DNA of 64,000 bases from a virus. The DNA lies in the IMG/VR virus record IMGVR_UViG_3300045988_132810, positions 64,001-128,000 of that record; one strand, 5' to 3'. Positions 5,851-28,916 of the stretch are shown here, piece after piece. A model generated the notes under the pieces. It was not told the DNA's origin. It searched no databases and saw only the letters and a program-made list of their open reading frames with translations. Position numbers and translations under genes: made by a program. Each line of letters opens with the position of its first letter. Positions within the stretch are counted from its first letter, which is position 1.

Positions 5851-6163
5851 CGATCTATTACTTTCCCACGAAAACCAAATGGTACTGACCGATTATGTAA
5901 TCGGCGGCAAGGTCTTTCGGCCTTGCTCTACGATTTTATTTTTAGATTATTGTCGTAGTCTAGACTGGATCTTCACCCTCATTCCCGTCATTATACGGAG
6001 TAGGGGAACAGCGGAACCTGTTATGTTACCATAAAAGGTCTTACAGTCGTTACGGATACTTTGCACACTGCAAAGTCTTTCCTCGGTCTTGACCATCTCT
6101 GGCTTTTAACCGATATAGCTGTTTTCTTTCAATATATTACTATATTGTTAGGCTATTATGTTA
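5851..6163 (-). ncRNA. ORF-less group I intron (313 nt) interrupting the tape measure gene
   Basis: The upstream ORF ends ...LITAANSVVQNPESVG followed by TAA (6163..6161), in the middle of the conserved TMP core. The core resumes in frame at 5850 (TAMKTLSLRIRG). P1 helix: exon UAGGU (6168..6164) pairs with intron GCCUA (6153..6149), placing a U.G wobble at the 5' splice site. The last intron nucleotide is G (5851). Structured elements include CUUUGCA-GUG-UGCAAAG, GCAAGG..GAAA..CCUUGC, and CUACGA...UCGUAG. It shares conserved blocks with the second intron at 28644..28916. Confidence 0.8.
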
Positions 6164-9100
6164 ACCTACAGATTCTGGATTTTGCACAACGCTATTGGCG
6201 GCTGTAATTAACCCAATAGACTCATCAAGTGTATTGCCAGCCTCTGCCATAGCACTAGCAGAACGCAATAGCGCTTGTCCAATACCTGATGAACTGATTG
6301 CAAAGTGGTTTCCCACCTCGTTGAATTTATCTACGATTCCCATAGCATGAGACGCTTCAATACCAAATCCGTGCATTGTAGAAATGATACTGTCAGAAGC
6401 CTCACCAATATCGGCTAGGTCATCACCAACGTTATAATAAACGGAAGCGGCCTTTGCCAAGTCAGATGCTTGTTCAATGTTATATCCTAACCTTGCGAAA
6501 TCTGCTGTAGCATTAGTAAAATCTTTAACGGTAGAGCCGATCTGCCCAGCAGTTTTAGACGCATCTTGTAAGAATCTCTTATAACTTTCATCAGTTTCGT
6601 CAGTAACTTTTTTCAGTTCAGTTAACGCTGCGTCAATTTCTCTTACATATGTAATACCTTGCTTAATTTGAGCAACAGTTTTATACACCATATTTGCGCC
6701 AGTAAAGTATGTAAGAATTTCACCAGACTTTTTCTTAACATTGCTAAAGAAAGAGCCAAGCGTACTACTTGCTTTGCCCATATTCTTAGCGGAAGCATTA
6801 ATAGCATTTCCCGCTTGATTAAACGATGCAGTTAGTTTTTCTACTTCGCCATTGCCATTCTTTATTGTAAAAGTAACCTTGGAATAGTTGTCAGCGAACT
6901 GAATAGATTTTTTATCTAACCCATCAAAAGAATTAGCAAATGCTTCTAATTCACTTCTTCTGCTTGCTTCGTCGCCAATATCAAAGCCATCAGAGACTGC
7001 ACGAGTGATATTACCAACTTTGTTTTTCATCTCTTCGGACTTCTTAATGATATTTTCAATTGCTTTGCCATATTTATTAAATGACTCAACTGCACTATCA
7101 AACTCTGCGGCCTTTTGCTTACCCAAATCCGAAGTGATGTCTATGTTTGCAAGCTCTTTTTGAAGTGTAATTATTCTTTGATATGCTTGCTCGTATTGCT
7201 GTAATTGAGTAGTAACCCCGGAGGCATTGGCATAGCCTTTGCTATTAACGCTATTAATTAACCCAGTATGCTTTGTTTCGACTTGTCCGACAACATCTGC
7301 CCCATACAAAGTATTGTTTTGCTTTGCTGAGTCCTTCTTTACCTTTGCGTACTGTTCAAAATCGCTCATGAGCTGCTTTGTCGCAGCACTCAACCTTTGC
7401 ATGTCATCTTCTGACACTTTACCAAAGGCTTCTTCGGACTTTGTTAGATCTTGTATCTCCTTTGATAGAGTTTCATATCTACTCTTTAACTGGCCAAGAT
7501 CACTATCTTTATCTACGAAGACTTCCGTATCAATTTTCCTAAAAGCAGAAGATAGCTTTTGATTTGCATCTATTAATGTTTTATAATTGTCTAGTTCTTT
7601 ATAGCTGTCGTTAGAACTTTTAGAACTACTAGAATGAGAAGTTATCCCTTTTCTTGTGCCCTTGCTGGAATCAGCTTCATTTCCAAGTGATTCAGCAGTT
7701 TTATCCGCGCTATCTTTTACATTTTGGTTTGCATTAGCAAAATCATTTTTCGCTTGAGTGGCTGACGCGAAAGCCTCGCTCGCTTCTCTCGCCTTTTCTA
7801 TTTCTTTTTCTATAGCAACCGCAGAAGCTTCCGCACTTTCCTTAACTCGTGCATTAGCTTCAACAAACTGATTTTTTTGTTCCGTCGCCGCCGCAAATGA
7901 TTCCTGTACACCACTAACGCTGGCTACTTCGGGAGCAGTCGTTGCAGGATCTCCTGTATTTTGACCATTAGCAATCTCACCAGTTGCTGTCTTCGAAACC
8001 TTTGACGCATCGCTCTGATTTTGTTTTTCTTTTTCTTTTGTAATTTGCTGTTGCGTTTCCAATTGTTGCTTTGCTTCTTCATTTTGTTGTTTCTCTACTG
8101 CCAACTCTTGCTCTGCCGCATCGGTGCCTTTTTGCTTTGCTTCTGTCGCACTACCTAATTGTACTTTTGCTTCAGCAAGCTTGGTTTTTAATTCATCAAT
8201 TACAGAAGACAAATTTTCAATTTTTGCTCTATATTCATCTACGACATCATTTGAAGTCATATTATCGACTTCGCTCATCGGGACAGAATTATCTAGAGCA
8301 TTTTGGATGTCGTAATAACTATTCTTCCACGAATCTAAAGCACCTTCCATACGAAGGATTTCTTCTTCCAATTCTTGTACTTGTTTTTGTGCCGCGTCAA
8401 GCTCGGAAGCGTCAACAGGATTTGTCGGAATAGCATTTAATTTTTCTTTAAGAGCGGCAATTTCTTGCATAAGCTCTTTTTCTTTTTCAAGCTGCGCGGT
8501 TTGATTGTCCATTTGATTAGACTGAGTTGAAGGCTGCCCAGACTGAATCTGATTAAGCTTTTCTTGCGCGGTAGTCTCCTCGTTGATAGCCTCAGTAGTT
8601 TTTTGATGTGCTTCTGCTGCTTGCGCTTCGATTTCCTTAATTCTAGCTACGCTTTGATTCCAAGCATTAGTAGAGTCAATTTCTCCACTCTCGAACGAGC
8701 TAAAAATATCTTTAAACTTGTCCCAATCGGCGGTGTGCGATGGATTTAATGTTGCCAATAAACTTTTTAATTTTTCAATTGGTGCAACAGAATTTTCTCC
8801 ATTCTTTTGTATTTCGGCTAAATAAGATGACAACTCTGGTAGCTGTTCCATTGTATATGTCTTAACAGTCGAAGCTAACCCATTGTCTGTAAACGCCTTA
8901 TCTAGGGCTTGATTGACTTTTTCATTAAACGCAGCAATCAACTGTTCATATGAAATGCCCGCTTGCGCCGCTTTTTCTTCTGCTCCTTTTATTAATCCAA
9001 CTTCTCCGTCATTATATTCCATCAGAGGAAATTCTTTTGTAGCTGCTTTTAAATTTTGAGAGTAAGATTCTCCAATTTTGATGGCCATTTCTTTAGAAAT

Positions 9101-28600: not shown

Positions 28601-28643
28601 ATGTCATGGTAAGCTCGCCACTGTTGTTAATTCCAAGGGCTGT
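25641..28643 (-). CDS. Giant tail adhesin, exon 2 (1000 aa): end of CotH-like domain, LRRs, B-repeats, LamG-like, DUF6273-like C-terminus
   Basis: The frame of track ORF 25641..28607 stays open 12 codons further upstream (TALGINNSGELT) up to the intron 3' end. LRR segment: LKTLVIGNKT...LTNLNLGNNALLEELDIRNCPKLTGSINLSSCGNLEKLYAEGTSV. B-repeats: YNYTFSGWDG and YNLFTGWDKSTGYITGDTDVYAKWE. C-terminus: GGWNDSKMRAFCNSRVY...YVYLPSYVEMF...IYYLRSP. Confidence 0.8.
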   Translation of the reverse strand, partial: TALGINNSGELTMTYGKEDTDYRTEGDKSSGYIFNAADNVFWCRIRDLFHDELAVMYQTLEGEGCFSATSLINEFDNWQAQFPEELWRLDIERKYYRTYQGGGLNAGATPEPTPRFLESMMNGRKKYQRRQFERDQAAYMGTKYLSTTVKADQIMFRCNTPSGVVVAPNYTLNIVPYSDMYLSVLFGNSPSAQQIRAKAGQSYEIQCPFTKMDDTAVLIYCASRIQALNDLSACYIHDNDFSKASKLKTLVIGNKTSGYSNAFLTNLNLGNNALLEELDIRNCPKLTGSINLSSCGNLEKLYAEGTSVTGVLFAANGKIALAHLPNTINSLSFKNLNYLTDLQATYDNLESLTIENSVIDAYPIVEDAIDTLQTLRLTGIDWTVTSTELLNAILKMNNNLLAGKVHIAGQARQRELDAYAAAWPDLAVTYNGIITQYKVTFMNSDGTAIKDKSGNDYVQYVDQGGKITDPVASGEIDTPTIPSTAQYNYTFSGWDGIDVNVTAPVTVTAKYSESVRTYTVRWFQQAGVVLATKTGVEYGAVAEYEGDNPTMSDNEDSYIYNLFTGWDKSTGYITGDTDVYAKWETQNGLPASGTDLKDMTPVQIYAVTTAGRANDYFEQKDYFDVRVGQDFSFSNVEEHMLGDEITFDGTSSKVVDSGVKLFGADSGSFTMAIDFEFGDNIADATLLSCFEYDGSEGFRLKYNGTNPEIQWGNTSKVVGKGGQRDIVVLRHRKGESKLYIYSFNSGASTTGVYADEMAYTELVRNRTTNTEATIMLGGFKFLSNGTIDSVTLGKGTIHWAKVWLDDIGDTAARQLAAWPHETWRYEYYGDKRYRCAQDSSKITGASFIPANLLSLTHNMNSTNTNLGGWNDSKMRAFCNSRVYAAFPTEWKSIIKQVQIPATAGNMASDIVYSKDYVYLPSYVEMFNTSEAPYSSEGKAIEFFGSSADRVKSIGDTASIYYLRSPEVAYNSYFRAVGIQGDMSSYMPSNRAHGICPCISI

Positions 28644-28916
28644 CGATCTGTTACTATATAGGCTTGGCCCTATATTATGACTTACATTTCTGTAAGCGGA
28701 GCAGGTTCTTCTTTAAGCGGTCTGATTACCGTTGACCCACTCTCTGCAATTTCATTATTAGATTATAGTTGCAGTCCAGACTGTTGCATACTTCATAACT
28801 CGCGTCACAAAGCCCTTTGTACTCAGTCGTTGCAGGCGGAAAATTTCCTTCCTGAGCGTTGCCAATCTCTTGGTTTTCGCCATTAATCAACAAAGGTTTT
28901 ACAACGACAAAATTTT
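28644..28916 (-). ncRNA. ORF-less group I intron (273 nt) interrupting the giant adhesin gene
   Basis: Exon 1 reads ...RFELWDYDND. Read-through gives KILSL followed by a stop, and exon 2 resumes in frame as TALGINNSGELTMTYGKEDTDY. P1 helix: exon AACGAU (28922..28917) pairs with intron GUCGUU (28908..28903), placing a U.G wobble at the splice site, and the helix can extend to 8 bp. The terminal G is at 28644. The 3' end AGUAACAGAUCG matches intron 1 (AGUAAUAGAUCG). Shared core blocks are AACGACUG, CAGUCURGACU and AUAAUCUAA. Confidence 0.8.

Follow-up and report, generated by a model that had tools for sequence, protein, structure and literature searches.

Two predicted group I introns of one mobile family in the tail genes of an uncultivated phage

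Mobile group I introns in the structural genes of phages, tape-measure genes included, are an established principle. Prophages of the Bacillus cereus group, for instance, carry the tape-measure introns TMP-IVS1/2/3 (Tourasse & Kolsto 2008, PMC2504315). In these prophage genes, several sites are taken by group I introns, paralogues that have their core in common and a guide adjusted to each site, and many of them are devoid of an endonuclease gene (PMC2504315). Another case is that of the gut 'Jug' jumbo phages, which average 18.5 group I introns per genome (Sci Adv 2026, PMC12880540). Here, two elements are described from positions 64,001 to 128,000 of the virus record IMGVR_UViG_3300045988_132810, a stretch of 64,000 nucleotides (nt) referred to as the window. 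One element (intron 1) interrupts the gene of a tape-measure-like protein and the other (intron 2) that of a tail protein of 2310 amino acids (aa) with a CotH-like domain, termed the giant tail gene below. Judged from sequence comparison, both are very probably group I introns, distant members of one mobile family, and are predicted to be self-splicing.

Members of this family resemble the introns of the B. cereus group and of Lactobacillus phage JCL1032 in being small, probably of IA type and inserted in frame in conserved tape-measure codons, with several sites per gene. As in those systems, the core is conserved among paralogues while P1 and the guide are re-tuned for each site, many copies are without a complete endonuclease gene and have a stop codon at or near their start, and the distribution among related phages is patchy. 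The hosts differ, however, being uncultivated phages of ~150 kb from gut, rumen and fermentation samples, and the present family is also found in a second tail gene that does not encode a tape measure. JCL1032 itself has its insertion at a different motif, ...ALGELANRGI^..GTRAGTGL (splice sites are marked ^ throughout). With the Jug phages the family shares a setting of uncultivated gut phages whose essential genes are often interrupted by small group I introns, the many free-standing endonuclease genes, and an intron content that is unlike in near-identical genomes. In contrast to the present introns, those reported from Jug phages interrupt terL, nrdD and polymerase genes, and published subtype models served to detect them (PMC12880540).

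In this part of the window every gene is encoded on the minus strand, and feature coordinates are collected in Table 1. The open reading frame (ORF) 10840..6161 reaches a stop codon three bases past ...NPESVG; the tape-measure frame picks up again at 5850 with TAMKTLSLRIRG... and runs on to the window start. Similarly, ORF 32846..28899 stops soon past ...WDYDND, and its frame resumes at 28643 with TALGINNSGE.... The limits of the two introns that follow from these frames agree with the earlier coordinates (5851-28916). Excision of each intron precisely restores the frame of intron-less homologues, with the exon joins ...NPESVG^TAMKTLS (intron 1) and ...WDYDND^TALGINN (intron 2). The first-pass annotation had read these joins (VG^TAMK and ND^TALG), directly before ACAGC in both cases, exactly as they are found here, and had rightly assigned the introns to two late structural genes, both of them tail genes. 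A PhageMin_Tail domain (Pfam) straddles the intron 1 site in the tape-measure-like protein, and the C-terminus of the giant tail protein is a DUF6273 domain.

As protein-guided searches show, related phages, where a search for both kinds of allele had been recommended, have intron-less as well as intron-containing alleles of both genes. At least nine relatives have an uninterrupted tape-measure site, reading NPESVGTAMK, and alleles without the intron have NPESVGTAMKTLSLRIRG across the intron 1 junction. For the giant tail gene, 28 close relatives (86-95% amino-acid identity) and dozens of remoter ones have an unbroken reading frame, and these intron-less genes always read WDYDND[TS]..GINNSGE.

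The two introns are homologous. All sequence blocks that they had been said to share are present in both at the positions claimed, on the minus strand. The block AACGACUG lies at 6051..6044 in intron 1 and 28831..28824 in intron 2, and has two further occurrences in the window, near chance level. A composite of CAGUCU(A/G)GACU, six nucleotides and AUAAUCUAA (5967..5942 and 28783..28758) matches nowhere else in the window, even at a tolerance of three mismatches, where 0.03 matches are expected by chance. At the 3' ends are AGUAAUAGAUCG (5862..5851) and AGUAACAGAUCG (28655..28644). The stem noted earlier as covarying, with two compensatory pairs between CUACGA/UCGUAG and CUGCAA/UUGCAG, is as described and corresponds to P9. 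A covariance model, R1, was built from seven intron-2-type sequences only. Its match to intron 1 (72.6 bits, E=1.7e-22) begins near the 5' end and extends to the last base at 5851, and at E<=10 neither strand of the window has a match besides the introns. The worry that the blocks might be generic AT-rich sequence is removed by this absence of any other locus, and the R1 match together with the pair tests given below bears out that the two elements are structured RNAs of common descent and that their compensatory covariation is real.

Features characteristic of group I introns can be identified in both elements. Each 5' exon end forms a P1 with an internal guide, with a U.G wobble, and both introns end in ...GAUCG, where an omega-G follows a short P9.0 pairing with J7/9. 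The core order P3-[P4-P5-P6]-P7-P3'-P8-P7'-P9, with a P3/P7 pseudoknot, is seen in comparative data. The introns of orf142 from Staphylococcus phage Twort (subgroup IA2) offer a point of reference with a known crystal structure (1Y0Q). Orf142 is a late tail gene (tail tube protein, MT151386) with three related introns, and R1 aligns end to end with introns 3 (24 bits, E=7e-8) and 2 (14 bits, E=1e-4). The stretch J6/7-P7 is nearly the same in Twort (GCAACGACUA) and in the present family (G(U/C)AACGACUG), as is J8/7-P7-J7/9 (GAUAUAGUCUGAAC and GAAGAUCCAGUCUAGAC, respectively), while the tails GUAACAUAAUUG and GUAA(U/C)AGAUCG are similar. These joining segments are the classical R and S elements: (G)UAAC-GACUG and GAAGAUC-CAGUC in the family resemble GCAAC-GACUA and GUGAUA-UAGUC in Twort. 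The conserved helix GACUG/CAGUC, proposed in the first-pass annotation as P3, is accordingly P7, which is contradictory to that proposal not only by its Twort-like flanks but also by its position, as it encloses the P3 3' strand and P8 and is followed by P9.0 and P9. Where the Twort introns have P7.1 and P7.2, intron 1 has one long P7.1 hairpin with a GUAA loop and intron 2 has neither, with 3 nt only at this position. A conserved 19-nt P9 loop (AUAAUCUAA...) belongs to the present family and not to Twort.

Similarity of R1 to the JCL1032 introns is weak (14-17 bits). Nonetheless its only two matches in the 49-kb JCL1032 genome are the annotated terminase and tape-measure introns. A separate observation on this phage (L211, 2471..2644; loci are cited by their L numbers) is that the Rfam model RF00028 (Intron_gpI) at gathering score retrieves the tape-measure intron and not the terminase intron, whereas R1 retrieves both.

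The fold of both introns was read by hand and then tested. In intron 1, P2 has a GUAA loop, P3 is formed by ACAGC/GCUGU and P7 by GACUG/CAGUC, P6/P6a follow P5 ahead of J6/7, and the tail AGUAAUAGAUCG contains the 3' half of P9.0 (UA) and the terminal G. Its single-sequence minimum-free-energy fold recovers P2, P4-P8, P7.1, P9, P9.1 and P9.2 (z=-4.5). In intron 2, the P1 strands are AUAACGAU in the exon and GUCGUUGU in the guide, and single-sequence folding gives z=-2.6.

MAFFT by itself does not align P7.1, P3' and P8 correctly across the two subfamilies; therefore a subfamily alignment and a model-fitted alignment were used. The former comprises seven intron-2-type sequences, in two of which the endonuclease loop was replaced by GAAA. 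On this set RNAalifold independently predicts P3, P4, P5, P6, P8, P9, P9.1, P9.2 and P9.3. Once P7, which could not be part of the covariance model, and P9.0 are included, 98.8% of cells are paired, with changes on both sides in 13 pairs. None of 500 shuffles was as good, and slid partners were paired in 31-45% of cells. A covariation test had been named as the result on which the structural claim should stand or fall, and pairs are supported in both alignments.

Individual helices illustrate these changes. P7 is GACUG/CAGUC in most members, with the variants GACUA/UAGUC (phage MaeS and L122), GACUU/AAGUC (a second L005 intron) and GAUCA/UGAUC (a third tape-measure intron). The P9 stem takes at least eight forms, among them CUACGA/UCGUAG, CUGCAA/UUGCAG, CUCGUG/CACGAG and CUCACA/UGUGAG, further ones being CUCCACG/CGUGGG, CUCUAA/UUAGAG, CUCACG/CGUGAG and CUCGUA/UACGAG. 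The R of CAGUCURGACU covaries perfectly with the Y of AGUAAYAG, and these two positions, which the first-pass annotation had listed in separate blocks, constitute a P9.0 pair: A-U in intron 1 as well as in L067, G-C in 23 other sequences (U-A-/-U-A in intron 1 versus U-G-/-C-A in intron 2). In 12 intron/site combinations, the end of the exon is complementary to a guide of 4-8 nt, the splice-site pair being U.G, and across these combinations the guides change along with their exons.

A candidate tertiary pairing links the P9 loop AUAAUCUAA (5942..5950 and 28758..28766) to the P5 hairpin (6092..6103 and 28862..28873). It reads AUCU x AGAU in most members; the divergent L188 (GCCU x AGGC) and MaeS (ACCU x AGGU) have changes on both sides and still form four Watson-Crick pairs each; three lineages are down to 3 bp. 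On this comparative evidence it may represent a kissing contact that replaces the usual tetraloop-receptor. Two other pairings were considered and rejected. One, between the P9 loop and the 3' tail (also AUCU x AGAU), is broken by L188 and L062, and the P5 loop is the better-fitting partner. The other, between GAUC at the 3' end and an upstream GAUC, was dropped because the sequence is absent from intron 2.

Relatives were collected by exact-pattern scans of viral, metagenome and genome collections, which gave ~30 true relatives, and the covariance model then recovered further ones that the exact pattern had missed. Close relatives lie on contigs of ~80-215 kb, mostly ~150 kb, from human-gut, rumen and fermentation samples. 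A scan of one genome per prokaryotic species returned one true member, on a 149-kb rumen contig, and the family is essentially confined to uncultivated phages. BLAST searches of 50,697 phage records with the exon-plus-intron regions and with the introns alone found no close relative. Their sole useful match was a 47-nt P4-P5 segment in Microcystis phage MaeS, which proved to be from a real family member. This cultured phage (L192, MT362618, ~1493..2768) carries an unannotated, endonuclease-bearing family intron between two hypothetical coding sequences, which are probably exons of one gene. A Carnobacterium match was inside a helicase coding sequence and was dismissed as chance.

The family occupies at least three tape-measure sites and two giant-tail-gene sites. 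Besides the sites of introns 1 and 2, insertions occur, in close relatives of the window phage, in the tape-measure gene at ARL^GYN (L166, L168-L170, L160, L161, L163, L176, L151 and L171) and at FNEVG^N (L160-L163, L176 and L175), and in the giant tail gene at TALGI^NNSG, 14 nt downstream of the intron 2 site (L122 and L124). The window phage is intron-less at all three of these positions. One contig, L005, has a second, intron-2-like member (7898..8147, minus strand, 134 bits) beside a family intron of tape-measure type.

No endonuclease-sized ORF is present inside either window intron, in agreement with the first-pass annotation. Sister introns, however, hold nuclease genes in the terminal loop of P6a. 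A GIY-YIG/NUMOD protein is encoded at the intron 2 site in L003, L004 and L010, and multi-zinc-finger Vsr-like proteins at the intron 1 site in L063, L067 and L041. Other family introns encode a LAGLIDADG protein (L014) or zinc-finger PD-(D/E)xK-like proteins (L062 and L002/L005). The 3' flank of the intron-less allele L074 equals that of the endonuclease-bearing L004 over 24 nt. Such near-identical flanks make homing by intron-borne nucleases the simplest route of spread.

A different kind of nuclease is found in L016 (fermentation metagenome UOOH01009864), where a family intron in a tape-measure-like gene contains a TnpB with OrfB_IS605 and Cas12f1-like TNB domains, in the position where relatives have homing endonucleases. 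The arrangement resembles an IStron.

Some points weigh against the assignment of the two elements to group I introns. RF00028 has no match in the window at gathering score or at E<=10, and none on 15 other family loci or phage MaeS. The covariance-model E-values are rough. That the P9 loop and the P7 3' strand do not vary in many members stems partly from the DNA pattern used for the search. The family alignment of 30 distinct sequences, in which 94.3% of cells pair and 57 of 66 pairs are changed on both sides (a result equalled by none of 500 shuffles; slid partners 35-44% paired), was fitted to the model and leans to structure, and it is thus supporting rather than independent evidence. As for RF00028, the model works on positive controls: the three Twort introns reach 64-101 bits and the tape-measure intron of JCL1032 reaches 59 bits, and none of the present family is seen. 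Its failure shows that the family is divergent from the curated model, and does not override the comparative structure. The Rfam result could also be taken, with the in-frame stops at the very start of both elements, to mean that the genes are truly split and that the conserved RNAs are intergenic regulators or non-splicing relics. This is hardly credible, as alleles without the introns match the predicted ligated exons base for base, in highly conserved motifs, and the downstream gene halves have no start contexts of their own. Furthermore, the guides follow their exons, and all the core helices have stayed paired across dozens of compensatory changes, a sign that selection still acts on the fold.

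If both elements are group I introns, the question becomes how one genome acquired two. The first-pass annotation suggested that one intron had spread within the genome, by reverse splicing or through a trans-acting endonuclease; this would amount to a recent copy from one tail gene to the other, with a shared endonuclease recognising the common U^ACAGC context. The introns are clearly homologous, ACAGC follows both, and ~11 kb upstream of intron 2 lies the gene of a free-standing nuclease akin to intron-borne ones. Yet across the 118 columns that they share in the 3' half their identity is just 64%, against 72-74% between intron 1 and L022, L063 and L051 and 70% between intron 2 and L196. Their similarity is no greater than that of either to introns of unrelated phages. 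Only intron 1 has P2 and P7.1, the P9.1-9.3 regions differ, and the guides are unlike (GCCUA versus GUCGUU). Each intron has orthologues at its own site in other phages, L063 and L051 occupying the tape-measure site of intron 1, and the presence of the two varies independently among near-identical phages. Contigs 118701, 110231 and 100349 have intron 1 and an intron-less giant tail gene; contig 121113 has an intron-less tape-measure site and intron 2 with an endonuclease. Nor is ACAGC a conserved context, since it varies even among orthologues (ACCGCA, ACAGGA or ACCGCU after intron 2 orthologues; ACUGCC or ACAGCU in tape-measure alleles without the intron), and neither intron has complementarity for a P10 pairing between its guide region and the 3' exon. 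Different endonuclease families are found at the two sites. Low identity, closer relatives at the same sites and independent variation therefore make recent copying within the genome very improbable. The pattern, as far as sequences can tell, fits two old, site-specific lineages of one family. The two free-standing nucleases of the window had likewise been pointed to, and in 'collaborative homing' the 376-aa protein (Table 1) or the GIY-YIG ORF at 38824..39231 would cut intron-less alleles in trans. The 376-aa protein, with its zinc fingers and PD-(D/E)xK-like end, matches PHROG endonuclease families annotated 'HNH endonuclease' and 'homing endonuclease' as well as the intron-borne endonuclease of L062 (blastp E=2e-7), and its gene is sporadic, like mobile nuclease genes. 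Its identity to the intron-borne relatives is only 24%, however, and it tracks neither intron. Among many related IMG/VR contigs, one has a close copy (110231, 87% identity), and this contig has intron 1 without intron 2; four other carriers of intron 1 and the intron 2 carrier 107099 are without one. The target sites have only 6 bases in common, and the GIY-YIG ORF has no similarity to the GIY-YIG endonuclease inside intron 2 orthologues (L003/L004). Collaborative homing is hence a distinctly unlikely account of these introns; mobilisation in trans by a free-standing nuclease is possible but unsupported, and the sporadic 376-aa nuclease gene is probably itself mobile. A wider proposal would see an uncatalogued group I subclass, invisible to Rfam, with a dispensable P7.1 and the pairing of P9 and P5 loops, that forms an 'intron swarm' at five or more sites in two tail genes with five nuclease types including TnpB, its endonuclease-free copies being mobilised in trans by the zinc-finger nuclease. 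Taken as a whole, this proposal is unlikely.

For two old, site-specific lineages of group I introns, the following course of events can be envisaged. After transcription, each intron RNA would fold into a canonical group I core. The last 5-8 exon bases would pair with the internal guide to form P1, whose U.G wobble would mark the splice site. The P4-P6 domain and the P3-P7-P8 pseudoknot would form, placing the guanosine site in P7 (GACUG/CAGUC), while P9.0 and P9 would position the terminal G. Two transesterifications would then join the exons in frame to give the tape-measure-like and the 2310-aa CotH-like proteins. At the DNA level, the family would colonise conserved codons of tail genes in a clade of ~150-kb uncultivated phages, spreading by homing, with endonuclease genes carried by sister introns at the same sites. 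The window copies would be endonuclease-free forms, either passive riders or moved by recombination in mixed infections. The sequences show the homology of the two introns, their boundaries, the covarying secondary structure and the existence of intron-less and endonuclease-bearing alleles; self-splicing, this homing history and the order in which the forms appeared are what we infer from the alleles and folds compared here.

These introns have consequences for annotation, as gene callers will fragment both tail genes and Rfam-based annotation will not flag the cause. R1 and the splice junctions let the tape-measure-like protein of >3900 aa and the CotH-like protein of 2310 aa be rebuilt. The family is also a compact natural data set for guide retuning and nuclease swapping in group I introns, and the intron-less, endonuclease-free and endonuclease-bearing alleles per site in near-identical phages make up an unusually complete series.

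Table 1. Positions of the two predicted introns, their host genes and associated features (window coordinates, except in the last two rows, which refer to locus L016)
Feature	Position	Strand	Remark
Host gene 1, tape-measure-like protein, >3900 aa spliced	1..10840	-	cut by window start
Intron 1, predicted group I, 313 nt, endonuclease-free	5851..6163	-	in tape-measure-like gene
Intron 1 flanks	5' exon last base 6164 (U); 3' exon first base 5850	-	
Intron 1 guide GCCUA	6149..6153	-	P1 with exon UAGGU (6168..6164), U.G at splice site
Intron 1 P3 5' strand ACAGC, P4 UCGGU/ACCGA, P5 GCCA-GAGA-UGGU	6083..6122	-	family covariation
Intron 1 J6/7 GUAAC and P7 5' strand GACUG (the AACGACUG block)	6044..6053	-	
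Intron 1 P7.1 long hairpin with GUAA loop, then P3 3' strand GCUGU	6008..6040	-	
Intron 1 P8, J8/7 UGAAGAUC, P7 3' strand CAGUC, P9.0 5' half UA	5961..6005	-	
Intron 1 P9 hairpin CUACGA/UCGUAG, 19-nt loop with AUAAUCUAA	5928..5958	-	stem seen to covary
Intron 1 P9.1, P9.2, last hairpin, tail AGUAAUAGAUCG	5851..5925	-	
Host gene 2, tail protein, 2310 aa spliced	25641..32846	-	CotH-like domain at junction
Intron 2, predicted group I, 273 nt, endonuclease-free	28644..28916	-	in 2310-aa tail protein
Intron 2 site, WDYDND^TALGINNSGE motif	exon join 28917/28643	-	CotH-like domain
Intron 2 guide GUCGUU(GU)	28903..28908	-	P1 with exon (AU)AACGAU, U.G at splice site
Intron 2 core: P3 CCUUUGU/ACAAAGG, P4 GGCG/CGCU, P5 CCAA-GAGA-UUGG, P6 CAGG/CCUG, J6/7 CAAC, P7 5' strand GACUG	28814..28896	-	
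Intron 2 P8, J8/7, P7 3' strand CAGUC, P9.0 5' half UG, together with P9 (next row)	28744..28813	-	
Intron 2 P9 hairpin CUGCAA/UUGCAG, loop with AUAAUCUAA	within 28744..28813	-	
Intron 2 P9.1/P9.1a, P9.2 (GAAA loop), P9.3, tail AGUAACAGAUCG	28644..28742	-	
Free-standing nuclease, 376 aa	39917..41047	-	three DUF4379 zinc fingers and PD-(D/E)xK-like C-terminus
L016 TnpB ORF	~2250..3470	- (of locus)	
L016 intron 3' part	1924..2154	- (of locus)	

A transfer RNA (tRNA) scan found no tRNA. Genes neighbouring the two host genes encode tail-fibre-like proteins and endolysins. The tape-measure-like protein contains approximately eleven tandem repeats of the type FFTETxPxKWxEFW.

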